A stretch of 64,000 nucleotides of DNA from Escherichia coli. Lineage in GTDB: Bacteria; Pseudomonadota; Gammaproteobacteria; Enterobacterales; Enterobacteriaceae. Positions within the stretch are counted from its first letter, which is position 1, and each line of letters opens with the position of its first letter. The notes under the pieces are model-generated. The model was not told the DNA's origin. It searched no databases and saw only the letters and a list, made by a program, of their open reading frames with translations. The stretch lies in assembly GCF_003790525.1 (NCBI RefSeq), contig NZ_CP033635.1; one strand, given 5' to 3'. The translations under genes were made by a program, and so were the position numbers. Below are positions 1,336 to 49,770 of this stretch, one piece after another.

Positions 1336-2136
1336 TTACGATAAATAGAGCTTACGCAGATAATGCGGCACTGCGTCCTCGGCGTTAGTACCAATCACTT
1401 CCAGTTCCGGATGCAGATCTTTCAGACGCTGGTGCGCACTGCCCATAATGCAGCCTTTCCCCGCCATCGACAGCATTTCGGCGTCGTTCATGCCATCGCC
1501 AAAGGCAATACAATCTTGCAGGCTGTAGCCCAGTTTCTTCGCCACCGCTTCCAGCGCATGGCCTTTCGACACGCCGCCCGCCATCACTTCCAGACAGGTT
1601 AAGGTAGAGAAACTAACGTTGACGCGATCGCCCCAGCGAGCATTAATCGCCTGCTCCAGCGGCAGCAGTTGTTCATGGGAATCGCAGGTGAAGAACACTT
1701 TGCTGACGCCTTCCGGCTCCAGTAATCCCGGCTCATACAGCGCATATTTGAATACCGCTTCTTTAAAAAAGCGCATCTCTTCCGGGCGATGACGATTCAT
1801 AAACCATTCGTCGTCGCGATAAACGTTAGTAATGATGTCCGGATTGTCGTTGACTACGCCAAACAGATCGCTGGCAATATCGCGATCCAGGTTATGAGCA
1901 AAAATCAGATTGCCATCCAGATCGTGAACGCGCGCGCCATTGGAGGTAATCATGTAAGACTTAATCTCCAGATTATCGCGAATTTGCCCCACATCAACGT
2001 GGTGACGACCGGTCGCAAATACAAAGTTGATGCCGCGCGCGGTGAGCAGCTTCAGAGTTTCTTTGGCGTAAGGGGATAACGTATGGTCGGGAGAAAGTAA
2101 CGTGCCATCTAAATCAGACGCAACAACCTGGTACAT
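1336..2136 (-). CDS. yigL: HAD-family sugar/pyridoxal phosphate phosphatase YigL
   Basis: ORF 1336..2262 trimmed to the internal Met giving MYQVVASDLDGTLL (HAD motif DxDGT), 266 aa; start sits 8 nt after the pldB stop. Confidence 0.85.
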   Translation of the reverse strand: MYQVVASDLDGTLLSPDHTLSPYAKETLKLLTARGINFVFATGRHHVDVGQIRDNLEIKSYMITSNGARVHDLDGNLIFAHNLDRDIASDLFGVVNDNPDIITNVYRDDEWFMNRHRPEEMRFFKEAVFKYALYEPGLLEPEGVSKVFFTCDSHEQLLPLEQAINARWGDRVNVSFSTLTCLEVMAGGVSKGHALEAVAKKLGYSLQDCIAFGDGMNDAEMLSMAGKGCIMGSAHQRLKDLHPELEVIGTNAEDAVPHYLRKLYLS

Positions 2137-2143
2137 AAGAAAT

Positions 2144-3166
2144 TTAAACCTCTGTAGAGCGGTTTCCGCTGGGTGAGTTATGCCTGTTGAAAAAATCAAC
2201 GATAGCGTGGAGCGCGACTGAGCGCATTGCGTCCTTTTCAAAAAGGATCTCATGGTACGCACCTTTAATTACCAACGGCCGTCCTCCTTCGACAGGATGG
2301 CCCGCAGCGGTGCGTAGTTCACAAAAACGGTCGTGCATGCGGTTATCCACCACGCGTTCCTCTTCAGCTTGTAAGAGAAGCGTTGGCGTGGCGTCATCAC
2401 CCGCACCGGCTAACACCTGTTCGCCAGCCAGAATACTTTCGCGTACCCAATGGTAGGTCGGCCCACCGACGCGAATCGTTGGGTCATCAGCATAAAAGCG
2501 TAAGTTACGTCGATATCGCTGTCTGCTGTGGGTCAGTACGTTGATAGCAAACGGCAACGCGCGCCAGCGCCCGGTGCCTATTGCATAGCCATCACGGAAA
2601 CGTGGATGCGCTTCGGCCCAGTTGAGGATCTGCCGTGCCATAAATGACGGCATACGAATCACGATCCCAAACATTGGCGCAGTTAGCGCAATGGCGTCAC
2701 ATACACCTGGATGGCGTTGCAGAAATAATGTGGAGATCGCACCGCCCATTGAATGTGCCAGTATATAGCGTTTACGCCACGGACCGGGCTGAACCTCCTG
2801 CTGCCAGAATGCCGCCAGATCATCAACATAATCATTAAAGCGATTAACATGCCCGAGATGCGGATCGGCTAACAGGCGACCGGAACGTCCCTGCCCGCGA
2901 TGGTCGATGATTAAGACATCAAACCCCAAATGGAACAGGTCATAGGCCAGTTCCGCATATTTTACGTAGCTCTCAATACGCCCCGGGCAGATGACTACCA
3001 CCCGGTCATGGTGCTGTGCGCGAAAACGGACAAAGCGCACCGGAATGTCATCCACACCAGTAAATTCTGCTTCATCACGCTGACGCCAGAAATCAGTCAG
3101 CGGTCCCATGGTAAAAGCAGCAAACGCGTTTTCTCTTGTTTCCCAGTCTTTTTGCTGCTGAAACAT
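2144..3166 (-). CDS. pldB: Lysophospholipase L2
   Basis: 340-aa ORF with alpha/beta-hydrolase motif HSMGG; synteny. Confidence 0.9.
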   Translation of the reverse strand: MFQQQKDWETRENAFAAFTMGPLTDFWRQRDEAEFTGVDDIPVRFVRFRAQHHDRVVVICPGRIESYVKYAELAYDLFHLGFDVLIIDHRGQGRSGRLLADPHLGHVNRFNDYVDDLAAFWQQEVQPGPWRKRYILAHSMGGAISTLFLQRHPGVCDAIALTAPMFGIVIRMPSFMARQILNWAEAHPRFRDGYAIGTGRWRALPFAINVLTHSRQRYRRNLRFYADDPTIRVGGPTYHWVRESILAGEQVLAGAGDDATPTLLLQAEEERVVDNRMHDRFCELRTAAGHPVEGGRPLVIKGAYHEILFEKDAMRSVALHAIVDFFNRHNSPSGNRSTEV

Positions 3167-3276
3167 CGGGTAATCTGCCTCTTAAACCACGTAAAATCGT
3201 TTTTTTAAGCGTGCCTGACACAACGCTGCGACAGTAGCGTATTGTGGCACAAAAATAGACACACCGGGAGTTCATC

Positions 3277-3897
3277 ATGACCTTAGAATGGTGGTTTGCC
3301 TACCTGCTGACATCGATCATTTTAAGCCTGTCGCCAGGCTCTGGCGCAATCAACACCATGACCACCTCGCTCAACCACGGTTATCGCGGCGCGGTGGCGT
3401 CTATTGCTGGGCTTCAGACCGGACTGGCGATTCATATTGTGCTGGTTGGCGTGGGGTTGGGGACGCTATTTTCCCGCTCAGTGATTGCGTTTGAAGTGTT
3501 GAAGTGGGCAGGCGCAGCTTACTTGATTTGGCTGGGAATACAGCAATGGCGCGCCGCTGGTGCAATTGACCTTAAATCGCCAGCCTCTACTCAATCGCGC
3601 CGACATTTGTTCCAGCGCGCAGTTTTTGTGAATCTTACCAATCCCAAAAGTATTGTGTTTCTGGCGGCGCTATTTCCGCAATTCATCATGCCGCAGCAGC
3701 CACAACTGATGCAGTATATCGTGCTCGGCGTCACCACTATTGTGGTCGATATTATTGTGATGATCGGTTACGCCACCCTTGCTCAACGGATTGCTCTATG
3801 GATTAAAGGACCAAAGCAGATGAAGGCGCTGAATAAGATTTTCGGCTCGTTGTTTATGCTGGTGGGAGCGCTGTTAGCATCGGCGAGGCATGCGTGA
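3277..3897 (+). CDS. rhtB: LysE/RhtB-family homoserine/homoserine-lactone exporter
   Basis: 206-aa membrane protein [27 protein letters not shown]; divergent from pldB. Confidence 0.9.
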
Positions 3898-3905
3898 AAA
3901 ATAAT

Positions 3906-3935
3906 GTCGGATGCGGCGTAAACGCCTTATCCGAC
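3906..3935. repeat. REP (repetitive extragenic palindrome) between the convergent rhtB and rhtC
   Basis: Palindromic tcggatgcggcgtaaacgccttatccga read directly in the intergenic spacer. Confidence 0.6.
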
Positions 3936-3958
3936 TTACTCTGATGACGCGTCTGGCA

Positions 3959-4579
3959 TCAACGCGAAATAATCAAATGAATGCCAAATCCGGCAAATAA
4001 CGCCCCGGCAAAACCATCAATCCACTTCGCCAGACGTTGATAACCACGGCGCATTTGCGGCAGGGCAAACAGGCTGGCAACGACGGTAAACCACGCCAGT
4101 GTTTCGATAATAATCAACGCGAAAATGCCCCAGCGCTCAGTGGTGCCGACGTTATCGCCGACAAACAGCGAGAATACCGAACCAAAGTAGATAATCGCTT
4201 TCGGATTGGCGAGATTGGTCAGTAAGCCTTTCAGGAAACTGCGCCCGCTTTTTGCCAGCTCAACCTGTGGTGCAGGCGCAGAAACCGCCTCTTTTTTCAG
4301 TGCACCGCGTAGCATCTGGTAACCCATCCAGCAGAGATACAGGCCACCGCCCACCATAATCAGCGTATGCAGCCAGGCCATTTTTTCGATAATCAAATGT
4401 AGGCCAAGCAACGCAATCCCAGCCCAAACCATTACGCCGCAGGTAATGCCCAGCACGCCCATCATCGCTTCTTTACGGGAACGACTGACAGCGGTCTGAG
4501 AGACAAAAAAGAAATCGGGACCGGGGCTCATAAGCGCCACAATGTGCACCATGGCGACGGTGAGGAATAACATCAACAT
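3959..4579 (-). CDS. rhtC: LysE/RhtB-family threonine exporter
   Basis: 206-aa membrane protein MLMLFLTVAMVHIVALMSPGPDFFF; paralogous to rhtB. Confidence 0.9.
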   Translation of the reverse strand: MLMLFLTVAMVHIVALMSPGPDFFFVSQTAVSRSRKEAMMGVLGITCGVMVWAGIALLGLHLIIEKMAWLHTLIMVGGGLYLCWMGYQMLRGALKKEAVSAPAPQVELAKSGRSFLKGLLTNLANPKAIIYFGSVFSLFVGDNVGTTERWGIFALIIIETLAWFTVVASLFALPQMRRGYQRLAKWIDGFAGALFAGFGIHLIISR

Positions 4580-4642
4580 ACATTAGACTCGCGGGGGAAA
4601 CGTTTACGGAGTCTTCATCCTGGCACTTTTTTATGCTGCTGA

Positions 4643-6478
4643 CTACTCTTCGTCGTCACCATCGACATGCGCGCGGATAAGCGCCATAAACGGTTTACCA
4701 AAGCGTTCCAGCTTGCGCATCCCAACGCCGTTAACGCTGAGCATTTCGCTGGCGGTGATCGGCATCTGTTCAGCCATCTCAATCAAGGTTGCGTCGTTAA
4801 ACACCACGTACGGCGGGACATTGCTTTCATCGGCAATCGATTTACGCAGTTTGCGTAATTTGGCGAACAGTTTGCGATCATAGTTGCCGCCGAAGGATTT
4901 CTGCATCGCTTTCGGTTTGAGCGCCACGATACGCGGCACGGCAAGTTGCAAAGAGGATTCGCCGCGCAGCACCGGACGCGCAGCCTCTGTCAGTTGTAGG
5001 GCAGAATGCTGGGCAATATTTTGCGTCACCAGGCCGAGGTGAATCAGCTGGCGGATCACGCTCACCCAATGTTCATGGCTTTTATCACGGCCCATGCCAT
5101 AGACTTTCAGTTTGTCATGACCATAGTCGCGGATACGCTGATTATTAGCACCGCGAATAACTTCCACCACATAGCCCATCCCAAACCGCTGATTCACACG
5201 ACCAATGGTGGAAAGGGCAATCTGAGCATCGGTTGAACCATCGTATTGTTTCGGCGGATCGAGGCAGATATCGCAGTTCCCGCACGGCTCCTGCCGCCCT
5301 TCGCCAAAGTAGTTCAGCAGCACCAGACGACGGCAAGTTTGCGCTTCGGCAAACGCGCCCATCGCATTGAGTTTATGGCGCTCGATATCCTGCAATTGCC
5401 CCTGCGGCTTCTCTTCCAGACAACGGCGTAGCCACGCCATATCGGCCGGATCGTAAAACAGCATCGCTTCCGCGGGCAGGCCATCACGCCCGGCGCGACC
5501 GGTTTCCTGATAATAGGATTCGATATTGCGCGGAATATCAAAGTGGACCACGAAGCGGACGTTAGGCTTGTTGATGCCCATGCCAAACGCCACGGTCGCC
5601 ACCACAATTTGCAGGTCATCGCGCTGAAATTTTTCCTGCACGTCGGCGCGGACATTATTTTCCAGCCCGGCATGATAGGCCGCCGCGCTAATACCCTTGC
5701 TTTGCAGGCGCGCAGCGGTGTCTTCTACTTTCGCCCGGCTGTTGCAGTAGATAATGCCGGACTTACCGCGCTGTTCCTGCACGTAGCGCATCAACTGATC
5801 GAGCGGTTTGAACTTCTCCATCAGCATGTAGCGAATATTCGGACGATCAAAACTGCTGATTTGAATCAGCGGATCGTTCAGCCCCAGCAGGCGCACGATA
5901 TCCTGGCGCGTGGTGTCATCGGCTGTGGCAGTCAGCGCCATAAACGGCAGCGTCGGAAAACGCTGACGCAGCTGACCGAGGGCAGCGTATTCCGGGCGGA
6001 AATCGTGACCCCATTGGGAGATACAGTGCGCTTCATCAACGGCTAATAACACCGGATTCCAGTGCGCCAGATGCTCAAGAAAGTTATCCAGCATCAGGCG
6101 TTCCGGCGCGATATAAAGCAGGCGGATTTGCCCGGTGCGACAGCCTGTCATCACTTCAAGTTGCTGCTCGCGGGTTTGCGTCGAGTTAAGGCACACCGCC
6201 GCCACGCCGTTGGCTTGCAGTTGATCCACCTGATCTTTCATCAACGAAATCAGCGGTGAAACAACCACGGTAAGGCCGTTTAGCAATAAGGCAGGGATTT
6301 GATAGCAAAGGGATTTTCCGCCACCAGTGGGCATGACAACGAGGCAATCGCGGCCGGAAAGCACAGTGTCGATAATTTCTTCCTGGCCGGGGCGAAACTG
6401 TTGGTAGCCAAAGGTTTCTTGTAAAACCTGTTTAGCCCCGGACTCCAGATTCAACACTTCCGCCTGCGCCACATTCAC
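4643..6478 (-). CDS. recQ: ATP-dependent DNA helicase RecQ
   Basis: 611-aa ORF with DEAH box ([15 protein letters not shown]), Zn-binding cysteines and an HRDC-type C-terminus; the true start may be the GTG two codons in (6472). Confidence 0.93.
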
Positions 6479-6490
6479 CCCGATTGCCTG

Positions 6491-6520
6491 AAATAAAAAC
6501 AGGCGCTATTTTCAGCGCCT
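6491..6520 (-). terminator. Rho-independent terminator downstream of pldA
   Basis: On the minus strand: hairpin aggcgct-gaaaat-agcgcct followed by GTTTTTATTT. Confidence 0.55.
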
Positions 6521-6596
6521 GCGCGAGAAACTGCAATGCTTTTAGTCTCTGAGAGGGTAATCCTGGATGCTGGATTCCAGATTTGCCAACCATTCA

Positions 6597-7466
6597 TCAA
6601 AACAGGTCGTTTAGCATAACTCCCACACCAACGCGGGTCTGGTTGAAGTTATAGTCGATGAGCGATTCGCCATAGCCGCTGTAAACCTGAGTATAAAGGC
6701 GCACATGTTTGGTGATCGGGTAACTTAAGCCTAACTCCGCGCCGCCGTAGCCCGTGTTCCAGTTGTACTGTCCTTTCGCACTCAACACCGCATCACCGAG
6801 GTGATAGCCGATTTTAAGCTGGTAGTAACCCATATATTTGGTGATATCCGGGTTATCGTCAGTATTACCCACCACATACCACGGCTTCACCTCTACCAGC
6901 CAGTTACCGTTTTCTGCCATCAGGCGTGTATAAAGGCGGTTCCAGCTGCGGGAGGTCGGGTCTGAACGCCCGTTAGAGTCGTGGTTATAACCCATCTCCA
7001 CATCGCGCAGCGTCCAACCTGCAAAACGGTAATCGGTGGCAAAACCGAGGAACAATTGCGGTTCGTAGTTGGTTTCACGAAACGGTGAAGACTCTTCGCT
7101 ATTGGACAGTTGCCACCAGGATTTTTGCGTGTAAGACGCACCCAATACCGAGTTCGGGCCTAAAATCCCACGCCACAGCGGAAATGCCAGGCTCAACTGA
7201 AACTTTACTTCATCCTTACGCGCATTTTCCGCCCAGTCGTAACTGGCAATCGCTTCTTTATTCAGATCGCTGGTTTGGGTGTAGATGATGTAGTTGGTGT
7301 CATAAGGATAAAGGGTGAACGGATTGTCATGCTCCTGCAGCATATTGGCGATAATACTGCCACGCACCGCTGGCGCGTCATGCACCTCTTTCACCGTTGC
7401 CTCTTGTGCATATACTGCCATAGGCAACATAAACACCGGCAACAACCAGCCCTGCAGAGTCCGCAT
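6597..7466 (-). CDS. pldA: Outer membrane phospholipase A
   Basis: 289-aa ORF with signal peptide MRTLQGWLLPVFMLPMAVYA and a beta-barrel ending in F. Confidence 0.92.
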   Translation of the reverse strand: MRTLQGWLLPVFMLPMAVYAQEATVKEVHDAPAVRGSIIANMLQEHDNPFTLYPYDTNYIIYTQTSDLNKEAIASYDWAENARKDEVKFQLSLAFPLWRGILGPNSVLGASYTQKSWWQLSNSEESSPFRETNYEPQLFLGFATDYRFAGWTLRDVEMGYNHDSNGRSDPTSRSWNRLYTRLMAENGNWLVEVKPWYVVGNTDDNPDITKYMGYYQLKIGYHLGDAVLSAKGQYNWNTGYGGAELGLSYPITKHVRLYTQVYSGYGESLIDYNFNQTRVGVGVMLNDLF

Positions 7467-7630
7467 CGCTCGTGTTCTCCGTAACGAATTATTGATAAGG
7501 TGAATATTTTTCTGCGGGCTATTTTACATACTTAACTCCATAGCCGTTAGTTATCCCTTCCTAAAGTAGAAATCAACAATAAAGAAGCATAAAATCAACA
7601 TTTCATTAACTAATGAAGTGTAAGGATGAT

Positions 7631-8098
7631 ATGTCTGCCGTACTGACCGCTGAACAAGCCCTGAAATTAGTGGGTGAGATGTTTGTTTATCACATGCCGT
7701 TTAACCGCGCATTGGGGATGGAACTGGAGCGTTACGAAAAAGAGTTCGCACAGCTGGCCTTTAAAAATCAGCCAATGATGGTGGGTAACTGGGCGCAAAG
7801 CATTTTGCACGGCGGGGTCATTGCGTCGGCGCTGGATGTCGCCGCCGGTCTGGTGTGCGTGGGAAGTACCTTAACCCGCCACGAAACCATCAGTGAAGAT
7901 GAACTACGCCAGCGGCTATCGCGGATGGGGACCATTGATCTTCGCGTCGATTATCTGCGCCCAGGCAGAGGCGAGCGTTTTACTGCTACCAGTAGCCTGT
8001 TACGTGCAGGCAATAAAGTCGCCGTCGCCCGCGTTGAATTACACAATGAAGAACAGCTTTATATTGCCAGTGCCACCGCCACCTATATGGTAGGTTGA
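7631..8098 (+). CDS. yigI: 4HBT/PaaI-family acyl-CoA thioesterase YigI
   Basis: ORF 7613..8098 trimmed to [18 protein letters not shown] (155 aa). Confidence 0.8.
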
Positions 8099-8149
8099 AG
8101 ACATAAAAGCAGGTAAACTGCTGTTACCAATTAAAAATGAGTATTCCCG

Positions 8150-9040
8150 ATGGATGCAAAACAAACGCGGCAGGGCGTATTACTCGCTCTTGCCGCTTAT
8201 TTTATTTGGGGTATTGCGCCAGCGTACTTCAAGCTGATTTACTACGTGCCCGCCGATGAGATCCTGACGCATCGCGTGATCTGGTCGTTTTTCTTTATGG
8301 TGGTGCTGATGAGCATTTGCCGCCAGTGGTCCTATTTAAAAACGCTGATTCAGACGCCACAGAAAATTTTTATGCTGGCAGTCTCTGCCGTGCTGATTGG
8401 TGGCAACTGGCTACTGTTTATCTGGGCGGTGAACAATCACCATATGCTGGAAGCGAGCCTTGGTTACTTTATTAACCCACTGGTGAACATTGTGCTGGGG
8501 ATGATTTTCCTCGGCGAGCGATTCCGCCGGATGCAATGGCTGGCGGTGATTCTGGCGATATGTGGCGTGTTGGTTCAGTTGTGGACTTTTGGTTCACTGC
8601 CGATTATCGCGCTGGGGCTGGCGTTTAGTTTTGCCTTCTACGGCCTGGTACGCAAGAAGATTGCTGTTGAAGCGCAAACCGGCATGTTAATCGAAACTAT
8701 GTGGTTGCTGCCCGTGGCGGCGATTTACCTGTTTGCTATTGCCGACAGCTCAACCAGCCATATGGGGCAAAACCCGATGTCGCTGAATTTACTGCTGATC
8801 GCCGCCGGTATTGTCACTACCGTACCGCTGTTGTGTTTTACTGCGGCTGCGACACGCCTGCGTCTCTCAACGTTAGGCTTTTTTCAGTACATTGGCCCGA
8901 CGCTGATGTTCCTGCTGGCTGTGACGTTTTATGGTGAAAAACCGGGTGCCGATAAGATGGTAACCTTCGCCTTTATTTGGGTGGCGCTGGCAATTTTTGT
9001 GATGGATGCGATTTATACGCAGCGTAGAACGTCCAAATAA
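8150..9040 (+). CDS. rarD: EamA/DMT-family transporter RarD
   Basis: 296-aa polytopic membrane protein MDAKQTRQGVLLALAAYFIWGIAP. Confidence 0.9.
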   Translation: MDAKQTRQGVLLALAAYFIWGIAPAYFKLIYYVPADEILTHRVIWSFFFMVVLMSICRQWSYLKTLIQTPQKIFMLAVSAVLIGGNWLLFIWAVNNHHMLEASLGYFINPLVNIVLGMIFLGERFRRMQWLAVILAICGVLVQLWTFGSLPIIALGLAFSFAFYGLVRKKIAVEAQTGMLIETMWLLPVAAIYLFAIADSSTSHMGQNPMSLNLLLIAAGIVTTVPLLCFTAAATRLRLSTLGFFQYIGPTLMFLLAVTFYGEKPGADKMVTFAFIWVALAIFVMDAIYTQRRTSK

Positions 9041-9349
9041 AAAATAAATATATTCTGAAAAAATATGCCGACTCTTGCATGAGAGTGGGCATATTGCCAT
9101 GCTGACAGGAGACTCACATAAGGAAAGGCAGAATTTCCAGACGTCGTTGTATATTTTCATTTGCTTTAATAAATTTCATTTTTGGTAAATTCAGCATTAT
9201 GTTATTAGCGATGAGCAAGACCAATCATTAACCAAGTTCTCTTCAGAATGTAATGAAAAATGTGAAGTGCATTTCTTTTTTAAAATTTTTTACCCTATTA
9301 TTTCTTATCAAATTAACATTGCCCTTAATTATAAGAAAGGAGAATATAA

Positions 9350-10198
9350 ATGAACAACATATTAGGCTCATCAATTAATATGCCCTGTACACTTTTCGAA
9401 ACTATTACTTTATTCGATGATTTTTCTGCTGATGATATGCAGTATGGGGATATGGAAGAACAAGATTTTCTCTCACTCGGCTTAAGCGACATCTCTGCAA
9501 AAGTTGATCCTTACCGCCTCATTAAATACCATTTTCCTGGGCCGAATTCTACTTATGGTGCTTTTAGTGTTCCAACTTCTGGAACAAAAATATCACAAAG
9601 TGAATGTATTGATATTTTATTTGCAGAAATGAAAGATCTGGCAAAAATGTTTTCCTTTTTTGGACAATACAAAACACTCATCCAGGATCTGATTGATCAT
9701 TTTAGATATGGAAATGGCAACAGTTTCCATAGCCAGGAATTGAACTTATCTTTTCATGAACGAATAAACAAATATGATTATAATAGCCCAATACGTGTAA
9801 TCAAAGAATGTATCGAAAATGATATTTCTTCAACACCTACGATAGGATACCGGCCTCTTCTCCTACAAAAGATTAAGACCGAATTACTTTCATCAAGACT
9901 AAATAAATTCAATGATTTTAAAGATAATTTTAATGGCATGGGAATCAGCATTCATGATATCTCAGCTCAAAAAATATCTCTTTTAAATTTTCAAAAATAT
10001 CCTATGGGCTGGAGCGCTACCATTCATTTCATAGCACAAGACCACTTTGGTTTGGATGTGACTGATATAAAAAACAAGATTTACAACAAGTATAGATTTT
10101 TTCGCATATGGTTCTTTTTACAACGGCATAAAGACTTTGCTTTCAAACCTTTTTTCACCAATTTTAACACTATCGAAAGAATCGAAAATTATCTATGA
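9350..10198 (+). CDS. Hypothetical soluble protein (282 aa), first gene of the AT-rich cassette
   Basis: Long ORF in a visibly AT-rich region, preceded by Shine-Dalgarno aaggag (9337..9342) about 8 nt before the ATG; no signal peptide or TM segment; codons strongly A/T-biased. Family unknown (tentative recollection: DUF3289-like length and composition). Confidence 0.75.
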   Translation: MNNILGSSINMPCTLFETITLFDDFSADDMQYGDMEEQDFLSLGLSDISAKVDPYRLIKYHFPGPNSTYGAFSVPTSGTKISQSECIDILFAEMKDLAKMFSFFGQYKTLIQDLIDHFRYGNGNSFHSQELNLSFHERINKYDYNSPIRVIKECIENDISSTPTIGYRPLLLQKIKTELLSSRLNKFNDFKDNFNGMGISIHDISAQKISLLNFQKYPMGWSATIHFIAQDHFGLDVTDIKNKIYNKYRFFRIWFFLQRHKDFAFKPFFTNFNTIERIENYL

Positions 10199-10692
10199 AA
10201 AGAAAACTCCAGAAAATTATATTATATTTATTTCTTCTATGCTGCATCTATAATTTATGGACATTGCGTCCTGTACAGATTTTGTATACATACTCTGATG
10301 CTGGCAATTCAGTCTTTCTGGTCGTTGATCATCTGCCATGGACTGACAGCGATAAAATAAATTGGTATCTGAAGCATCAGAATGAAATTAAAAATCAACA
10401 CCCCCTACCAGAAGGTAGTTGGCATACCTGGTATGTTATTGATATCGGTAATGGCTTCACTGACTATAAAAAATATATCGAAGGGCCGTATGAAGATCTC
10501 TACTGTTTCCCGACGATTAAGAGCAATGATAATTGCATCGTAAAAAACTATTTAATGGTTATTAATGAATATCCTTACCGTAATACTCATTTTTTTATTG
10601 CTGATAACAATGAGTATCAACTAACCCAGGAAAATAAGATAGAGCGAGTGTTCAACCCGCATGACTTTGAAAAAGACAATTTTCAGCAATAA
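10195..10692 (+). CDS. Hypothetical small membrane-anchored protein (165 aa), second gene of the AT-rich cassette
   Basis: Start overlaps the upstream stop in ATGA (10195..10198); N-terminus MKRKLQK followed by a ~17-residue hydrophobic segment IILYLFLLCCIYNLWTL, then a hydrophilic domain. Family unknown (tentative recollection: DUF943-like). Confidence 0.7.
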   Translation: MKRKLQKIILYLFLLCCIYNLWTLRPVQILYTYSDAGNSVFLVVDHLPWTDSDKINWYLKHQNEIKNQHPLPEGSWHTWYVIDIGNGFTDYKKYIEGPYEDLYCFPTIKSNDNCIVKNYLMVINEYPYRNTHFFIADNNEYQLTQENKIERVFNPHDFEKDNFQQ

Positions 10693-10720
10693 GCCGGATA
10701 AAGAACAATCTTTACCCGGC
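10693..10720. terminator. Stem-loop between the convergent cassette gene B and corA (possible bidirectional terminator)
   Basis: gccggataaag / aacaat / ctttacccggc, an 11-bp stem with one mismatch, immediately after the gene B stop and just before the corA stop. Confidence 0.45.
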
Positions 10721-10727
10721 ATTTATA

Positions 10728-11678
10728 TTACAACCAGTTCTTCCGCTTAAAGTACAGATACGGTGCCAGGCCCGCGAGGATCATAAAGATAATCGCGCCA
10801 GGGTAGCCGAAGCTCCACTTCAGTTCCGGCATAAACTCAAAGTTCATCCCGTAGCTGGAAGCGACCAGCGTCGGTGGCAGGAACACCACGGATACCACCG
10901 AGAAGATTTTGATGATGCGGTTCTGCTCGATATTGATAAAGCCCATCGCCGCCTGCATCAGGAAGTTCACCTTCTGGAACAGGGATTCGTTATGCGGCAG
11001 CAGGGATTCGATATCTCGCAGGATTTCACGCGCCTGCTCCAGTTGCCCACCCGGTAAGCGTGCTTTACGTACCAGGAAGTTGAGCGCGCGCTGGGTATCC
11101 ATCAGACACAGGCGAACTTTCCAGCCGATATCTTCCAGTTCCGCCAGCGTGGAGAGCGCCTCGTCGTACTCATCGCCCTGATGCCCTTCCATAATTACCC
11201 GGCTCAACTGCTCCAGGTCACTGTAGATATTTTCAATTTCATCCGCCAACTGTTCGATTTTGGTTTCGAACAGATCCAGCAACAGCTCGTAGGCGTTACC
11301 GTCCACCATCGACTGGCTACGGGCACGCATACGATACAGACGAAAAGCGGGCAGTTCACGCTCACGCAGAGTAAACAGACGACCATCACGAATGGTAAAT
11401 GCCACAGTGGAGTTACCGGCGTGATCTTCCGCATCTTCAAAGAAGAAGAAGGAGTGAATATGCAGGCCGTCATCGTCTTCAAAGAAACGTGCCGATGCTT
11501 CGATGTCTTCCAGTTCCGGGCGGGTTGCCAGGCTCTGGCCAAGTTCAGATTGTACGCGCAGTCGCTCGTCGTCGTCCGGTTCGACAAGATCAATCCATAC
11601 TGCATTTACAAGGGGTTGTGACTCTTCGACTTCCAGCCGGGTCAGTCGGTTATTTTCCAGTTGAAATGCGCTCAGCAT
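10728..11678 (-). CDS. corA: Magnesium/cobalt transporter CorA
   Basis: ORF 10728..11693 trimmed to [15 protein letters not shown] (316 aa); GMNF motif and C-terminal TM helices present. Confidence 0.93.
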
Positions 11679-12894: not shown

Positions 12895-13797
12895 ATGAAA
12901 AAAAGGCTCGCAACGTTATTTTTATTAACGTGTCTGGGATCATCATCCGCCTATGCGGATAACGCTTTGATTTTACAAACTGATTTTAGCCTGAAAGATG
13001 GTGCCGTCTCGGCGATGAAAGGGGTCGCATTCGGCGTTGACCATAATCTTAAAATCTTTGATTTAACACACGAAATTCCACCGTATAACATCTGGGAAGG
13101 CGCTTATCGCCTGTATCAGACTGCCAGTTACTGGCCGCAAGGTTCGGTGTTTGTTAGCGTGGTCGATCCGGGCGTAGGCACTGACCGTAAATCGGTAGTG
13201 CTGAAAACCAAAAACGGTCAATACTTCGTTTCACCAGATAACGGTACGCTCACTTTGGTGGCACAAACTCTGGGTATTGATAGCGTCCGAGAAATCGACG
13301 AAAAAGCTAACCGCCTGAAAGGTTCTGAAAAGTCATATACCTTCCACGGTCGTGACGTGTATGCCTACACCGGTGCGCGTCTGGCTTCCGGGGCGATTAC
13401 GTTCGAACAGGTGGGGCCAGAGCTTCCTGCAAAAGTTGTCGAACTTTCTTATCAGAAAGCAAAAGCAACAAAAGGTGAAGTGAAGGGCAATATCCCGATT
13501 CTCGATATTCAGTACGGCAACGTCTGGAGCAATATCAGCGACGAGTTGCTGAATCAGGCAGGAATCAAACTCAACGACACGTTGTGTGTGACCATTTCCG
13601 AAGGTTCCCAGCAAAAATACGCAGGGAAAATGCCATATGTCGCAAGCTTCGGCGATGTGCCGGAAGGCCAGCCGATGGTGTATCTGAACAGCTTATTGAA
13701 TGTTTCCGTGGCGCTGAATATGGATAATTTTGCGCAGAAACATCAGGTTGCGTCTGGTGCTGACTGGAATATTGATGTGAAGAAGTGCGCTAAGTAA
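12895..13797 (+). CDS. SAM hydroxide adenosyltransferase (DUF62; fluorinase/chlorinase/SAM-hydrolase) family protein with N-terminal signal peptide
   Basis: 300-aa ORF with signal peptide MKKRLATLFLLTCLGSSSAYA and family-type motifs LILQTDFSLKDGAVSAMKGV, VFVSVVDPGVGT, YFVSPDNGTLT and DIQYGNVWSNI. Confidence 0.8.
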   Translation: MKKRLATLFLLTCLGSSSAYADNALILQTDFSLKDGAVSAMKGVAFGVDHNLKIFDLTHEIPPYNIWEGAYRLYQTASYWPQGSVFVSVVDPGVGTDRKSVVLKTKNGQYFVSPDNGTLTLVAQTLGIDSVREIDEKANRLKGSEKSYTFHGRDVYAYTGARLASGAITFEQVGPELPAKVVELSYQKAKATKGEVKGNIPILDIQYGNVWSNISDELLNQAGIKLNDTLCVTISEGSQQKYAGKMPYVASFGDVPEGQPMVYLNSLLNVSVALNMDNFAQKHQVASGADWNIDVKKCAK

Positions 13798-19475: not shown

Positions 19476-19944
19476 TATGGATTGCCTGTAAAGTTCATCG
19501 CTTTCTGCTTTCTATCATCGCAGGAGAAGACGTAAAAGCAAGCGTTTAGCGACTCTTTATGAAGTCTGAAAAGTGAGGAAATGCTGCGAGTATAACGCTT
19601 ACACGTGGCGATTTATGTTTTGCTGGCAGTTTCGTGATCGGCACCTCGCGCCAGGATGGCTTTATGCACTATCGCAACGTGGTTTGTTTGTTGTCTTGTT
19701 CGTTGTTCTTATCGTCGGCATGGGGATGTCGGCTTTCCGCGCCTGAACATAATATTTACCAGAAACAGGGAAAAGGCGTGGTGTACCTGCGTCCTTATGA
19801 AAAGACCAATCTTTCGCTATATAGAGATATTATTATTCCGTTGACGGATGAATCATGCCGTAACGCAGCCGCAGACGGGCAAACTTTGAAGCCCTGACCC
19901 CATACCGCTATACTGCCGCCATCACTTAAAAACAGGATACAACA

Positions 19945-31265: not shown

Positions 31266-31307
31266 AAATACTGCTTTTTGAATTTTTAGTTCAATTCTTT
31301 AAAGTCG

Positions 31308-31394
31308 TGGTGCGAGGGGGGGGACTTGAACCCCCACGTCCGTAAGGACACTAACACCTGAAGCTAGCGCGTCTACCAATTCCGCCACCTTCGC
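31308..31394 (-). tRNA. leuT: tRNA-Leu (anticodon CAG)
   Basis: Minus strand GCGAAGGTGGCGGAATTGGTAGACGCGCTAGCTTCAGGTGTTAG...CTCGCACCA; long variable arm, anticodon CAG. Confidence 0.95.
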
Positions 31395-31414
31395 ATTGTC
31401 ACAACTTCTAATAA

Positions 31415-31491
31415 TGGGGTGGCTAATGGGATTCGAACCCACGACAACTGGAATCACAATCCAGGGCTCTACCAACTGAGCTATAGCCACC
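31415..31491 (-). tRNA. hisR: tRNA-His (anticodon GUG)
   Basis: Minus strand GGTGGCTATAGCTCAGTTGGTAGAGCCCTGGATTGTGATTCCAG...GCCACCCCA; includes the extra 5' G typical of tRNA-His. Confidence 0.95.
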
Positions 31492-31548
31492 ACTACAAAT
31501 CTTGTTACGCGGTATTACTACCACCGCAGCTCAAGCGCCGGGACTAAA

Positions 31549-31625
<77 letters not shown>

Positions 31626-31727
31626 TTAGCGCCGTTGCGGGGGTGGATAATACGGACTTCCCACCCCTCTGTCTAGTCCCTTTTTAAATAAATTGCGCGT
31701 TTGGTTACGGTTTGTGCGTTTTGCTGC

Positions 31728-33113
31728 TTATTCCTCCAGTTTATGCGCTTTACCGTGGCGATTAAGCCCAAAAATTTTATAAATCGCCGTCACCGCCAGC
31801 ATAAAGATGATGCCGACAAACAGCGACATACGCGTATCTTCATTAAAGTACATGCCGATCAAAACGCAAATCAGGAATGCCATTGTTACGTAGTTGGCCC
31901 ACGGGAACAGGATTGAGCGGAACGGATGGCTGGCAATCGCCGCTTTATGCGCACGACGAAAACGCAGCTGGCTTATCAATATCACAAACCATGGCACCAT
32001 CCCCGGAAGCACGCTGGCACTGTAGACGTAGACAAACACACGCTGCGGATTGGGAATGATGTAGTTCAGGCATGAGCCAATTAACAGGATAGCAATAGAT
32101 ACTGCCACACCCGCAACCGGTACGCCGTGACGGGAAACTTTCGCCATTGCCGCCGGTAACTGACGGTTTTTCGCCAGTGCGTAGAGCATACGTCCGCAAC
32201 TGTACATGCCGCTGTTACAGCCAGAGAGCGCAGCCGTCAGCACCACAAAGTTGATAATACCCGCCGCTGCGGTAATGCCGATTTTGGCGAAAGTCAGTAC
32301 GAACGGGCTGCCGTTGCTGCCTATTTCATTCCACGGGAAGATGGTGACGATAACGAAAATCGCGCCTACGTAGAAAATCAGGATTCGCCACAGCACCTTG
32401 CCTACGGCACTGCGCAGCGTCACCTGCGGATTCTTCGCTTCACCGGCAGTAATGCCAATCAGCTCCACGCCCTGGTAGGACGCCACCACAATACACAGCG
32501 CGGTCAGGAACCCTTTCCAGCCCCCCGCAAAGAAACCGCCATGCTCTGTGAGATTGCTAAAACCAATCGACTGCCCGCCATTGCCAAAGCCAAAGAAAAT
32601 CACGCCCAGGCCAATGACAATCATCACGATAATCGTGGTGACTTTGATCATCGCAAACCAGAACTCGATTTCGCCGTACAACCGCACCGCCGCCAGATTC
32701 GCCAATGCTACCAGCGCCACCGCGATCAATGCCGGTATCCATTGCGCCATCTCCGGGAACCAGAACTGGACATAAACGCCAATGGCGGTGATTTCTGAGA
32801 TCCCCACCGCCATCCACATAAACCAGTAAGACCAGGCGGTGAGATAGCCAAAAAACGGGCTCATATAACGATGCGCATAAACGGCGAACGAACCGGTAAC
32901 AGGTTCGAGGAACAACATTTCGCCCATTGAACGCATGATGAAAAAGACGAATAGCCCGGCGATGATATAGGCCAACAATACGGATGGCCCGGCCCATTTC
33001 AGGGTACTGGCGGCCCCCATAAACAGGCCGACGCCAATGGTGCCCCCCAGGGCGATGAGTTCGATATGTCGAGCCTCCAGCCCACGCTGTAGCTCTGGTT
33101 TGTTATCTGCCAT
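31728..33113 (-). CDS. yifK: APC-family amino acid permease YifK
   Basis: 461-aa polytopic membrane protein [31 protein letters not shown]. Confidence 0.9.
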
Positions 33114-44980: not shown

Positions 44981-46084
44981 TTATTTGGTTAAATTGGGGC
45001 TGCCACCACGATTTCTACGCAGTCTGCGTTTTACGCGCTTAATAAAGCGAGCAACTTTCCAGGCACGCTTGATGCAATATCCATAGAGGAAGAATGCTAG
45101 CAAAAAGAGCACCAGCATGACCCACTCCGGGACAAAATGAGAATATTCTGCCAGCACGCCAATGGAAGCGAGCAGTGCTGCGGCAAGGGTAATCAGCACA
45201 AACGCCTGGCGGGAAGTAAACCCGGCACGCATGATCAAATGGTGAATATGCTGACGGTCAGGAGAGAATGGGCTCATGCCTTTACGCAGGCGACGGTACA
45301 TAATCGCCACCATATCCATTAGTGGAATGGCGATTATCCATAATGCAGTAACCGGGCTTATTGGGTGCGTTTTTCCCTGAGTCGTTTCGAGCAGGATCCA
45401 GATAACGGTAAAACCAATCAGCGTACTGCCCGCATCCCCCATAAAGACTTTGTAGCGGCGACCCAGGATACCAAGGTTAAGCATGATGTATGGCAGGATA
45501 GCGGCGATCATCGCAAAGCACCAGATTGCGAGACTGGTTTGCCCGTCGAACCACAAAATCATACCGATTGCTGCAAACGAGACGCAGGACAACCCGCCCA
45601 GCAAGCCATCAATGCCATCAACCATGTTGAACGCATTAATGGCCGCCCAGACGGCAAATAGCGTCAGGAAGTAACCAAACGGTCCGAGCACCATCTCCCA
45701 GGAGCCAAAGATATAACCCAGGCTACTGAGATAAAGTTTGCCGAACACCATCATAACAATGCCAACAGCGGCCTGTATGGTGGCACGGATTTTTACGCTG
45801 ATATCAAAACGGTCATCCAGCGCGCCAATGAAAACAAGCACACCAGCACAAGCGAGATAGAGAGATGCATGCGGAATATAGTAATCGACAATTCCGAACG
45901 TGAAGCAAATCCCTGCGTAAACCGAAATCCCCCCAACGAGAGGTATCAATCCCTGGTGACGTTTGCGGAAGTTTGGTTTATCCACTAAACCGACTTTTTT
46001 TGCCACCTTACGGGCAAAAAACAGAAACAGTGTCGTGAATAAAAAAATACTGATGAGATCAGTACTCACTGTCAGTAAATTCAC
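44981..46084 (-). CDS. wecA: UDP-GlcNAc:undecaprenyl-phosphate GlcNAc-1-phosphate transferase
   Basis: 367-aa polytopic membrane protein; first gene of the ECA cluster. Confidence 0.92.
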   Translation of the reverse strand: MNLLTVSTDLISIFLFTTLFLFFARKVAKKVGLVDKPNFRKRHQGLIPLVGGISVYAGICFTFGIVDYYIPHASLYLACAGVLVFIGALDDRFDISVKIRATIQAAVGIVMMVFGKLYLSSLGYIFGSWEMVLGPFGYFLTLFAVWAAINAFNMVDGIDGLLGGLSCVSFAAIGMILWFDGQTSLAIWCFAMIAAILPYIMLNLGILGRRYKVFMGDAGSTLIGFTVIWILLETTQGKTHPISPVTALWIIAIPLMDMVAIMYRRLRKGMSPFSPDRQHIHHLIMRAGFTSRQAFVLITLAAALLASIGVLAEYSHFVPEWVMLVLFLLAFFLYGYCIKRAWKVARFIKRVKRRLRRNRGGSPNLTK

Positions 46085-46270
46085 AATGCATGCTCTCAGA
46101 GAAAATTATTAGCAGAAGTATAACCACGAAGACCTTTATTCAGAAGGGAAAGTCCGTTCCGAACCCACCAGCCCTGTGCAAAAATTAACCATTTGATATG
46201 CAAATTGCATAACACACCAGCAAATTCCAGGAATTTTCCTAGCATCGCCAGCGCGGCATTAAGATTACAG

Positions 46271-46309
46271 ATATAAAAGCAAAACGCCACGTAAACACGT
46301 GGCGTTTTT
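46271..46309 (-). terminator. Rho-independent terminator downstream of rho
   Basis: Hairpin aacgccacgt-aaac-acgtggcgtt flanked by T-runs on both strands. Confidence 0.65.
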
Positions 46310-46323
46310 GGCATAAAACAAAT

Positions 46324-47583
46324 TTATGAGCGTTTCATCATTTCGAAGAAATCGTCATTGGTCTTGGTCATTGCCAGTTTATTAATGAGGAATTCCATTG
46401 CATCGATTTCGCCCATCGGGTGAATGATTTTGCGCAGGATCCACATTTTCTGCAGTTCTTCCTGAGTCGTGAGCAGCTCTTCTTTACGGGTACCGGAACG
46501 GTTGTAGTCGATAGCCGGGAAGACGCGTTTTTCAGCGATCTTACGAGAGAGGTGCAGTTCCATGTTGCCTGTACCTTTAAACTCTTCGTAGATAACTTCG
46601 TCCATCTTGGAACCGGTATCGATAAGCGCGGTAGCGATGATGGTCAGGCTGCCGCCCTCTTCCACGTTACGCGCCGCACCAAAGAAGCGTTTCGGACGAT
46701 GCAGAGCATTGGCATCCACACCACCGGTCAACACTTTACCTGACGCCGGAACAACGGTGTTGTAAGCGCGCGCCAGACGAGTGATGGAGTCGAGCAGAAT
46801 GATAACGTCTTTCTTGTGCTCAACCAGGCGTTTGGCCTTCTCGATCACCATTTCCGCAACCTGAACGTGGCGAGATGCGGGTTCGTCAAAGGTAGAAGCA
46901 ACAACTTCACCTTTAACCAGACGCTGCATCTCGGTGACTTCTTCCGGACGTTCGTCGATCAGCAGAACCATCAGTACGCAATCCGGGTGGTTGTAAGCAA
47001 TGCTCTGAGCAATGTTCTGCAGCAGCATGGTTTTACCGGCTTTCGGCGGTGCCACAATCAGACCACGCTGACCACGACCGATAGGTGATGCCAGATCCAG
47101 TACGCGAGCGGTTAAATCTTCCGTAGAACCGTTACCACGTTCCATACGCAGACGAGAGTTTGCGTGCAGCGGGGTTAAGTTCTCAAAGAGGATTTTGTTG
47201 CGGGCGTTTTCAGGTTTGTCGAAGTTAACTTCGTTAACTTTCAGCAGCGCAAAATAGCGTTCACCTTCTTTCGGCGGGCGAATCTTACCAGAGATGGTAT
47301 CACCAGTGCGGAGGTTGAAACGGCGGATTTGGCTAGGGGAAACGTAGATGTCATCAGGACCGGCGAGGTAGGAGCTGTCTGCGGAACGGAGGAAACCAAA
47401 TCCATCCTGCAATATCTCCAGTACGCCATCACCAAAGATATCTTCGCCACTCTTTGCGTGCTGCTTCAGGATGGCAAAAATAATGTCCTGCTTACGCATA
47501 CGAGCCAGGTTTTCCAGCCCCATATTTTCGCCGAGAGTGATCAGCTCAGAAACCGGCGTATTCTTTAATTCGGTAAGATTCAT
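46324..47583 (-). CDS. rho: Transcription termination factor Rho
   Basis: ORF 46324..47655 trimmed to [25 protein letters not shown] (419 aa); Walker A PPKAGKT. Confidence 0.95.
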
Positions 47584-47667
47584 AGTGGTGTGAGTTCTTA
47601 AACTTGGGGTAAATCTCGAACTTAATGTTGTGAATGGTATGGCAGGATCATCCATGCCTGTTTACGG

Positions 47668-47769
47668 TCATCGACTCATGTCTTTTCGCTGTCTGGTCAC
47701 AGGAGAGTACGCAGAACTGAAACGACAAGACGGATTGAGTGACGAGCCAGAAATCTGTTCACTTCGCAT
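47668..47769 (-). CDS. rhoL: rho operon leader peptide
   Basis: 33-codon minus-strand ORF ATGCGAAGTGAACAG... translating to MRSEQISGSSLNPSCRFSSAYSPVTRQRKDMSR, upstream of rho; too short for the ORF track. Confidence 0.8.
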   Translation of the reverse strand: MRSEQISGSSLNPSCRFSSAYSPVTRQRKDMSR

Positions 47770-47909
47770 TTAAGATAAAACGGGAAGCGTTGGAAATTAC
47801 AAGATTCAAACTTAATAAGGTATGTTTAATACGAAGTCAACACTAAGTTAGCATGACTCACGCCGGGCGTCCAGTTTTTAGCGACGGGGCACCCGAACAT
47901 GAAATTCCC

Positions 47910-48239
47910 TTACGCCAGGTTAGCGTCGAGGAACTCTTTCAACTGACCTTTAGACAGTGCGCCCACTTTGGTTGCCGCCACTTCACCGTTTTTGAACAGC
48001 AGCAGAGTCGGGATACCACGGATGCCATATTTCGGCGCAGTGCCAGGGTTTTGATCGATGTTCAGTTTTGCAACGGTCAGTTTGCCCTGATATTCGTCAG
48101 CGATTTCATCCAGAATCGGGGCGATCATTTTGCACGGACCGCACCACTCTGCCCAGAAATCAACGAGGATCGCCCCGTCCGCTTTGAGTACATCCGTGTC
48201 AAAACTGTCGTCAGTCAGGTGAATAATTTTATCGCTCAT
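47910..48239 (-). CDS. trxA: Thioredoxin 1
   Basis: ORF trimmed to [37 protein letters not shown] (109 aa, active site CGPC). Confidence 0.95.
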
Positions 48240-48369
48240 ATATAACTCCACAGGAATAAGCCTGGCGTGTTGGTTTCGTTGTTGGTGTAACATTAACCAA
48301 CTAAAGGTTGACTTTATTTCACCGGATACGCTTTCGTAAAGCAATAGTAAGCTGATATTCTACCACACT

Positions 48370-49635: not shown

Positions 49636-49770
49636 ATAAAAAATGTCATACTCCAAATCATTCAAGCTGTATCAAGATGGCAAGAGAATGAATCCCGATG
49701 AGTTTACTGTAGTAAGTGATTCAGGTGAAAGAATGCAGCCAACACAGAGACAGATTGAAGGATGAAGAGT

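Follow-up and report, generated by a model that had tools for sequence, protein, structure and literature searches.

What kind of two-gene module occupies the interval between rarD and corA in Escherichia coli SMS-3-5, and what could it do there? An earlier note on the 64-kb stretch of DNA analysed here (the window) had judged the interval by eye to be A+T-rich, and had proposed that it carries an uncharacterised accessory cassette. The sliding-window profile bears out the first point: the G+C content of positions 9041–10727 is 0.329, compared with a window mean of 0.521 (SD 0.036, 1687-nt windows), and is the minimum of the whole window. GC3 is similarly displaced, at 0.29 in gene A and 0.36 in gene B as against 0.62 in rarD and 0.63 in corA. 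The positions given for rarD, corA, the two open reading frames, their overlap and the AAGGAG all hold (Table 1). The ATGA at 10195–10198 provides both the gene A stop and the gene B start, through which gene B is translationally coupled to gene A.

Table 1. Features of the rarD–corA interval of SMS-3-5, in window coordinates.
Feature	Position	Strand	Description
rarD	ends 9040		5′ flank of the cassette interval
rarD–yigG intergenic spacer	9041..9126	+	common to K-12-like genomes; alignment of SMS-3-5 with RS571, K-12-like, E2865 and JNE141411
yigG decayed 5′ stub, ~58 nt	9127..9184	+	alignment of SMS-3-5 with RS571, K-12-like, E2865 and JNE141411
AT-rich upstream region of the cassette	9185..9349	+	G+C ~0.30; conserved with other cassette-bearing strains
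Shine–Dalgarno AAGGAG	9337–9342	+	7 nt before the gene A ATG
Gene A	9350..10198	+	282 aa, WP_001059678.1, standalone DUF3289 / TIGR03034 'YPO3983 family'
Gene B	10195..10692	+	165 aa, WP_000823792.1, DUF943
G+C-rich hairpin, 12 bp	10693..10720		between the convergent gene B and corA stops; terminator-like site in scan
corA stop	10728		3′ flank, convergent with gene B

In K-12-like genomes the interval is occupied by yigG and yigF, as the earlier note had stated. The alignment shows that in SMS-3-5 the spacer terminates at a 38-nt deletion that took out the yigG start codon, and that the yigG stub is followed by a deletion of about 1 kb, in which the rest of yigG, yigF and a 147-nt corA′ fragment have gone. 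Other strains keep this fragment upstream of the cassette; RS571 has the corA′ direct repeat, which the window lacks. The 12 kb to either side of the cassette are free of secretion, integrase and mobility genes, in agreement with what had been noted of its neighbours; xerC, about 6 kb past corA, is the core recombinase. A promoter scan of 8900–10900 returned seven sites compared with 7.9 expected, no more than chance, and the Rfam scan gave nothing beyond sub-threshold snoRNA noise. Judged from its sequence, the hairpin behind gene B could plausibly act as a terminator that is shared or bidirectional.

Gene A is a full-length member of the DUF3289 (TIGR03034, YPO3983) family. It scores 395.7 bits against TIGR03034 (cut-off 156.45; residues 8–280 on positions 1–274 of the 274 in the model) and matches DUF3289 (PF11692) with an E-value of 8.6e-83 (residues 10–278 on positions 2–270 of 272). 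The protein contains the conserved motifs ADDMxxGD (27–34), which is the N-lobe motif in DUF3289, NGxGIxxHD (195–203), QDHFGLDxxD (230–239), FRIWFxLQR (251–259) and KPF (266–268). Eight residues, D29, F233, G234, D239, W254, L257, Q258 and P267, are invariant across 61 diverse family members, and the family has an invariant acidic motif, D231-H-F-G-L-D236-x-x-D239. Inspection of the sequence revealed no signal peptide, the N-terminus being acidic and non-hydrophobic. DUF3289 is the sole domain and fills the protein, with no PAAR, Hcp, VgrG or other delivery domain found in a check that had no dedicated models for MIX, PIX and WHIX; the cassette is likewise not linked to vgrG, hcp, paar or an adaptor gene, its neighbours being rarD and corA. 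An N-terminal ETITL in gene A resembles the TonB boxes of ColM and FhuA but lacks conservation: the consensus among family members there is [ILV]-[FY]-x-[TS], within a β-strand that folds confidently, and we rejected it as a TonB box.

Gene B, which follows the DUF3289 gene directly and in the same orientation, matches DUF943 (PF06092; E = 9.8e-28, residues 3–152), so that the earlier note's tentative naming of both families was exact. Its hydrophobic N-terminal signal-anchor, a predicted helix at residues ∼2–24, corresponds to the membrane anchor recognized earlier, and is followed by an α/β domain that the model predicts to be periplasmic; cysteines C104 and C114 are invariant. The description 'uncharacterised' does not apply, since the DUF3289/DUF943 family has been described between 2021 and 2025 and RefSeq names both genes. 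The cassette is thus a catalogued member of a published toxin–immunity family, an already known kind and not a new system. Our literature search on YPO3983, TIGR03034, PF11692 and PF06092 found no papers.

A close experimental parallel is T6EC1/T6IC1 of Yersinia pseudotuberculosis IP32881, a pair from the same two Pfam families in which DUF943 likewise follows DUF3289 (Geller et al., 2024; PMC11148199). T6IC1 has the topology predicted for gene B, an N-terminal TM helix and a periplasmic domain of ∼130 aa. When targeted to the periplasm, the Yersinia PAAR–DUF3289 protein is toxic and causes E. coli cells to round, and DUF943 rescues them (PMC11148199). Toxicity and rescue have been shown for that pair, whose effector has an N-terminal PAAR fusion and is encoded inside a T6SS operon; gene A, in contrast, encodes a standalone protein of 282 aa without PAAR, at a housekeeping locus and in a strain for which no T6SS was detected. 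In this respect it is more like the orphan DUF3289 protein of Aeromonas jandaei DSM 7311 (WP_042032936.1), which is not T6SS-linked, occurs in the T6SS-dependent secretome and forms a genetic effector–immunity pair (PMC12135965). There too a small membrane immunity gene follows the DUF3289 gene, although, comparing by description, its 95 aa product has a signal peptide and three TM helices and is not DUF943, and the host T6SS is active. DUF3289 and DUF943 are also linked in a Klebsiella T6SS (PMC12469244).

Fold searches add a structural parallel. The gene A model matches the C-terminal domain (CTD) of the effector BtpeA (Bfe5), and the gene B model the immunity protein BtpiA, of a solved T6SS effector–immunity complex from Bacteroides fragilis (PDB 9JDI, 9JG8, 9JG9). 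These structures were reportedly presented by Li et al. in Cell Host Microbe in 2025. BtpeA differs from gene A in its length (608 aa), in its phylum and in that its secretion complex has a dedicated adaptor, BtapC; at the profile level, BtpeA aligns with no more than the C-terminal two-thirds of the DUF3289 domain. Gene A is predicted to be a periplasm-acting antibacterial toxin and gene B its cognate immunity protein, and the effector/immunity reading offered earlier agrees with both the published family experiments and the fold matches.

After DUF3289 itself, the next recognizable family in the fold searches was the colicin M class (colicin M, PaeM, pectocins, syringacin M), with marginal resemblance. 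These are lipid II phosphodiesterases that act in the periplasm and have a cell-wall target, and Cmi, the colicin M immunity protein, is inner-membrane-anchored and periplasm-facing, as predicted for gene B; gene B itself was not found to be Cmi-like. Gene A does not match PF14859 (colicin M), the DUF3289 profile retrieved no colicin M chain from the PDB at E-values up to 10, and its hhalign probability was 0.11% against ColM (a query sequence validated against the PDB) and 0.09% against a ColM family profile, a shallow one of four sequences because the homologues found were mostly frameshifted fragments. The signature D-x-Y-D-x5-H-R, invariant in the ColM alignment (D106, Y108, D109, H115 and R116 of A6), is absent from DUF3289. 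The profile, PF14859 and signature results thus show no link of gene A to the colicin M class by sequence, and the published 'colicin M homologue' label for DUF3289 is weakly supported by these tests.

Four allelic states of the rarD–corA locus were found, and ∼49% of complete E. coli genomes carry the cassette, consistent with the variability suspected earlier. A DUF3289/DUF943 pair occupies the same site in Salmonella subspecies, and the pairing recurs in Enterobacter and Trabulsiella and in metagenomic loci. The E. coli cassettes fall into deep allelic classes (dS 0.42). For these last reasons, the same site in Salmonella and the depth of the E. coli classes, recent acquisition is too simple a reading of a cassette whose composition is foreign. 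Both genes are under purifying selection, with dN/dS of ∼0.19 for gene A and 0.13–0.23 for gene B. In other proteins DUF3289 is fused to PAAR (nine members), Hcp (two) or DUF4280 (one), and also to M23 peptidase, PG_binding_1, SH3, M14 and glycoside-hydrolase-like domains, architectures in keeping with delivery by a T6SS and with a target in the cell wall.

We then asked whether SMS-3-5 has a T6SS that could use the pair. A chimeric blastn query that included the tssC genes of T6SS-1, -2 and -3, the three types in E. coli, hit one place in the chromosomal record and gave no tssC match; the aspV and metV insertion sites hold no T6SS island. The literature yielded nothing useful on T6SS in this strain. 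In a systematic sample, extra probe matches were present in 22 of the 29 chromosomes that carry the cassette and in about 16 of the 28 that lack it, a weak association between cassette and T6SS carriage. The other seven carriers, about a quarter and SMS-3-5 among them, lack tssC, and genes A and B are intact there. Among the points that go beyond the literature consulted are the lack of a tssC match on the SMS-3-5 chromosome and of a T6SS island at its aspV and metV sites, and the absence of PAAR, Hcp or another delivery domain from gene A.

We believe that what SMS-3-5 carries is probably an orphan pair of the DUF3289/DUF943 effector–immunity family, standalone and stranded. This reading draws on the observed family membership, fold matches, predicted gene B topology, distribution, purifying selection and tssC absence, and, from the literature, on periplasmic toxicity with rounding, rescue by DUF943 and T6SS delivery of the Aeromonas orphan. 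If the copies here are active, gene A would be harmless in the cytoplasm of its producer; consistent with this, gene A is intact in two strains in which gene B is frameshifted, and a 2021 preprint found cytoplasmic expression of a standalone DUF3289 protein not to be toxic. In the periplasm of a target cell it would damage the envelope, the biochemical target most likely being the cell wall or its precursors. Gene B would use its N-terminal helix as an inner-membrane anchor, with a disulfide-stabilized domain facing the periplasm, where it would bind and block incoming or stray toxin. In T6SS-bearing strains, which include the close relatives D8 and ECONIH2, gene A would probably ride non-covalently on the spike or tube into neighbouring cells. 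Because SMS-3-5 has no detectable T6SS, the pair there is most likely a stranded module, in which gene B may still serve defensively against DUF3289 toxins of other Enterobacteria, gene A being carried unused. If gene A is idle wherever a T6SS is missing, something else must account for its being intact and under purifying selection, for example a T6SS that was lost recently or a function that needs no T6SS. A BL21 derivative also carries an intact pair, yet BL21 is killed by the Yersinia DUF3289 toxin (PMC11148199), which implies that its native gene B is non-cognate or not expressed.

Could the pair nevertheless be an active offensive weapon in SMS-3-5, served by a plasmid-borne or highly divergent T6SS that our probes missed? 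Close relatives with the cassette at least 98% identical do have tssC matches (records H72–H80), some E. coli carry tssC on plasmids (records H113 and H129), and the Aeromonas orphan is T6SS-delivered; given the single place found by the three-type query and the empty aspV and metV sites, we regard this as distinctly unlikely. A role independent of T6SS has a small but appreciable chance of applying to standalone pairs, fixed as they are at housekeeping loci and intact without T6SS: widespread DUF943 'herd' immunity may select for the locus, or DUF3289 may act on the envelope through a distinct chemistry without relation to colicin M, based on the invariant QDHFGLDxxD acidic motif. More specific proposals, that the standalone pair is a bacteriocin-like toxin released by lysis or in vesicles, an addiction module acting post-segregationally, or a regulated enzyme of the cell wall paired with an inhibitor, seem to us rather unlikely. 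The tssC-less carriers with intact, selected genes would suit them, as would the standalone pairs of other taxa, always orphans between housekeeping genes, and the marginal likeness to colicin M-class bacteriocins. However, gene A lacks a signal peptide, an accompanying lysis gene and any receptor-binding or translocation domain, its ETITL is no conserved TonB box, the strains with frameshifted gene B argue against addiction, and the PAAR-fused forms hold the same full-length DUF3289 domain, so that the standalone protein looks like the toxin minus its carrier.

The original 2021 hypothesis reversed the roles, with DUF3289 as a T6SS adaptor and DUF943 as the toxic effector; in the 2021 preprint, over-expressed Aeromonas DUF943 was toxic and standalone DUF3289 was not. 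Over-expression of membrane proteins is, however, commonly toxic. Later work from that group found DUF3289 to be toxic in the periplasm and DUF943 to rescue the cells (PMC11148199), Aeromonas genetics support DUF3289 as effector (PMC12135965), and the crystal entry labels the BtpeA CTD effector and BtpiA immunity, the order in which our models match; the hypothesis is largely refuted and very unlikely to hold here. A two-gene anti-phage defence module, which the earlier note had also entertained, would have to rely on generic features (A+T richness, a variable locus, two coupled genes), and we find it extremely unlikely: PADLOC-DB contains no family matching either protein at E-values up to 1, neither has nuclease, ATPase, TIR or SIR2 domains, and both match a T6SS effector–immunity complex specifically. 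Of the earlier interpretation as a whole, then, effector/immunity, the families, variability and foreign composition stand, and uncharacterised status and defence do not.

About half of E. coli, laboratory B strains included, carry a chromosomal DUF3289/DUF943 pair, and our search found no paper on the activity, expression or cross-immunity of these E. coli pairs. Carriers without a T6SS sheath gene, such as SMS-3-5, are natural cases for asking why orphan effector–immunity pairs persist.

The AT-rich cassette between rarD and corA is real, but already known. Its first gene (A) matches TIGR03034 (E 1e-118, far over the curated cut-off) and Pfam DUF3289 (E 8.6e-83), in both cases over its whole length, and its second (B) matches Pfam DUF943 (E 9.8e-28); these are the two Pfam families that an earlier note on this DNA had tentatively suggested. 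The same note called the module a candidate uncharacterised one, which no longer stands, given that the function of the family has been published and that the RefSeq annotation of E. coli SMS-3-5, whose chromosome matches the window at 100% identity, already names A as 'YPO3983 family protein' and B as 'DUF943 family protein'. Its description of the two-ORF cassette was accurate: the boundaries, the ORF coordinates, the ATGA overlap of the A stop with the B start and the AAGGAG motif all hold. Its impression of AT-richness was borne out by calculation, with a G+C of 0.329 in the interval, the global minimum of the 64-kb window, against a mean of 0.521 (SD 0.036) for windows of equal length; GC3 is 0.29 in A and 0.36 in B, vs 0.62–0.63 in rarD and corA.

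Features of the rarD–corA interval (window coordinates, except for RS571, which are those of its own locus)
Feature	Coordinates	Strand	Remark
rarD end	9040		
rarD–yigG spacer	9041–9126		SMS-3-5, state (iv)
Decayed yigG 5' stub, ~58 nt	9127–9184		start codon gone through a 38-nt deletion
AAGGAG	9337–9342		7 nt 5' of the A ATG
A, 282 aa	9350..10198	same as B	ORF between rarD and corA
B, 165 aa	10195..10692	same as A	ORF between rarD and corA
12-bp G+C-rich hairpin	10693–10720		between convergent stops of B and corA
corA stop	10728	-	
147-nt corA 3' direct repeat copies	RS571 2853–2999 and 4564–4710		strain keeping yigG/yigF

Published experiments on the family support the suggestion of an effector/immunity pair. 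A PAAR-fused DUF3289 protein from a type VI secretion system (T6SS) operon of Yersinia pseudotuberculosis is toxic in the periplasm of E. coli, where cells become round, and is counteracted by its DUF943 partner (Geller et al., 2024; PMC11148199). Aeromonas jandaei secretes an orphan DUF3289 protein in a T6SS-dependent manner, and deletion and complementation established this protein as part of a bona fide effector–immunity pair (PLoS Biology, 2025; PMC12135965). In a Klebsiella survey DUF3289 and DUF943 are linked within one T6SS type (PMC12469244), and DUF3289 is a possible toxic end of PIX-domain orphan effectors. Standalone DUF3289–DUF943 pairs had already been noted in a 2021 preprint from the group of Geller et al.

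An exhaustive search gave 461 representative clusters of DUF3289 homologues, which form three groups: standalone proteins of ~280 aa, aligned over query residues 8–278; proteins of 400–450 aa with an N-terminal extension; and fusions of 500–1300 aa, in which the match is limited to query residues ~85–275. Among 61 members scanned, the extra domains were PAAR (nine), Hcp (two), DUF4280 (one), M23 peptidase (three) and PG_binding_1 (two), with SH3, M14 carboxypeptidase and glycoside-hydrolase-like domains as further partners; the fusion partners are T6SS carriers plus peptidoglycan-directed modules. One enterobacterial genome (locus 5632–10682) has two PAAR–DUF3289 genes, followed by arrays of extra DUF943 (four genes) and a DUF3289 fragment of 62 aa; such an organisation is typical of polymorphic toxin/orphan immunity loci. 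In A, conservation is complete or nearly so at D29 and D34 in the N-lobe, and at D192, G196, D203, D231, H232, F233, G234, L235, D236, D239, F251, W254, L257, Q258, P267 and F268; the acidic cluster D231/D236/D239, together with H232, is the obvious candidate active site.

DUF3289 has been proposed as a colicin M homologue (PMC11148199). A PDB search with the DUF3289 profile (E up to 10) hit none of the colicin M chains, and hhalign gave probabilities of 0.11% against a validated colicin M sequence and 0.09% against a small profile of the colicin M family. DUF3289 lacks the catalytic signature DxYDx5HR, which does not vary in the colicin M alignment, and B does not resemble a colicin M immunity protein. 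With all four comparisons negative, we do not place A in the colicin M family. The published phenotypes and the fusion partners give good support to a periplasmic cell-wall target; that A cleaves lipid II in particular is a tentative hypothesis, which we consider more probably wrong than right.

The locus is variable, as had been claimed. Of 5426 complete E. coli genomes, 2753 contain cassette DNA, and 2633 of these cover 80% or more of the cassette; best-match identity is at least 95% in 929 records and 80–95% in 1832, and carriers include ATCC 25922, O157:H7 and B strains (a BL21 derivative). At least four states of the interval exist: (i) yigG–yigF alone, the K-12 arrangement, correctly given in the earlier note; (ii) yigG–yigF followed by a 147-nt corA 3' fragment and the cassette; (iii) the corA fragment and the cassette preceded by another segment, in which a 'hypothetical' gene lies on the minus strand; and (iv) that of SMS-3-5. 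In O157-type strains, including E2865 (locus ~1930–3050), the rarD 3' end and yigG/yigF give way to an unrelated AT-rich segment whose minus strand encodes a 'hypothetical protein' of 99 aa, a third cargo at this hotspot. Elsewhere in the window, a truncated DKNYY-family pseudogene (RefSeq annotation) lies between lptM and cyaY (~19634–19819), and a 300-aa SAM hydrolase/SAM-dependent halogenase family gene lies between yigE and uvrD (12895–13797); the latter, with a signal-peptide-like N-terminus and a slightly low G+C (0.47), may be another accessory gene of the region.

In state (ii), the cassette is flanked by a 147-nt direct repeat, one copy being the corA fragment and the other the true corA 3' end (93% identity, 1711 nt apart). 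Such a trace would be expected of a single-crossover (Campbell-type) insertion, and it would permit precise loss of the cassette, restoring the K-12 state. The repeat was not found in window 8900–10900: in SMS-3-5, a deletion of ~1 kb took its upstream copy with the remainder of yigG and yigF, and joins the yigG stub to the region upstream of the cassette. Outside E. coli, Salmonella enterica subspecies (houtenae, arizonae and others) carry the pair at the same site with ~63% amino-acid identity, and Enterobacter and metagenomic relatives have standalone pairs between unrelated housekeeping genes, some duplicated in tandem (as in Enterobacter locus 4499–7319).

Nei–Gojobori dN/dS between SMS-3-5 and other alleles was ~0.19 for A and 0.13–0.23 for B, and against Salmonella 0.13 and 0.11 respectively. 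These values are low but above those of the flanking rarD and corA (0–0.05), and we therefore conclude that both genes are maintained, less tightly than core genes. Two allele classes of A occur in E. coli, separated by a dS of 0.42, three to four times that of the flanks. RS571 (locus 3186–4528, compared with window 9350–10692) has an A of the divergent class, 84% identical to that of SMS-3-5 at the amino-acid level, next to a B with 99.4% identity (dS 0.011). Recombination, with a breakpoint that must fall inside A or B or between them, therefore reshuffles toxin and immunity alleles, and it becomes relevant whether immunity extends across allele classes. An intact pair is present in laboratory strains of E. 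coli B (T7Express, a BL21 derivative, locus 1501–2837), and BL21 was the sensitive host in the Yersinia toxicity assay (PMC11148199); its native immunity protein is therefore either non-cognate or not expressed.

We then consider whether SMS-3-5 could deliver the toxin. T6SS islands occupy aspV in O157 Sakai (with rhs) and metV in CFT073. In SMS-3-5, yafV directly follows the aspV tRNA with nothing inserted (locus 31275–32220), and a small PTS/sugar-metabolism island and then amiC come after the metV tRNAs (loci 45525–50000 and 1–2641). A chimeric blastn query joined 2 kb of the window to 650-nt segments of the sheath gene tssC from Sakai (T6SS-2 type), CFT073 (T6SS-1 type) and the EAEC 042 aai cluster (T6SS-3 type). 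The top match was the SMS-3-5 chromosome, owing to the window part of the query; it had a single place, and therefore no tssC was detected in it by this query. In an evenly spaced sample, additional places were matched in 22 of 29 cassette-positive vs ~16 of 28 cassette-negative chromosomes, a weak association; the counts are crude, being rank-based, taking extra places to be tssC and treating plasmids as separate records. About a quarter of the carriers in this sample lacked the sheath gene. The pair is intact in two carriers without a tssC match (AST19 and 571); in a third, 2013C-3513, A is intact and B is annotated as frameshifted (locus 2886–3378). E2865 likewise has an intact A and a B annotated as frameshifted (locus 4086–4578).

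Such carriers, and the finding of no T6SS gene next to the standalone pairs in the Salmonella, Enterobacter and metagenomic loci examined, would suit a T6SS-independent role, which we consider unlikely, though the strongest of the rivals. That a T6SS in SMS-3-5 escaped detection is less probable again, given the tssC query with all three types and the lack of a T6SS at both island sites. A reversal of roles, DUF943 being the toxin, is very improbable: the 2021 preprint, in which standalone DUF3289 was non-toxic in the cytoplasm, assigned them in this way, and the later periplasmic assay showed the opposite. Least probable is a phage-defence module, the other guess of the earlier note, since neither protein matches any PADLOC defence model.

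As an effector–immunity pair, A would be made without an export signal and would be harmless in the cytoplasm of its producer, as the preprint result suggests and in line with the strains in which B is frameshifted. In T6SS-positive strains it would probably ride non-covalently on the spike or tube into the periplasm of neighbours, there to harm the cell wall or the precursors of the wall; B, predicted to face the periplasm from an inner-membrane anchor, would bind and block the toxin. Since no T6SS was detected in SMS-3-5, the offensive half of the pair would be inoperative there. The most economical reading is that its pair is a stranded effector–immunity module, of which B still protects against DUF3289-armed competitors.
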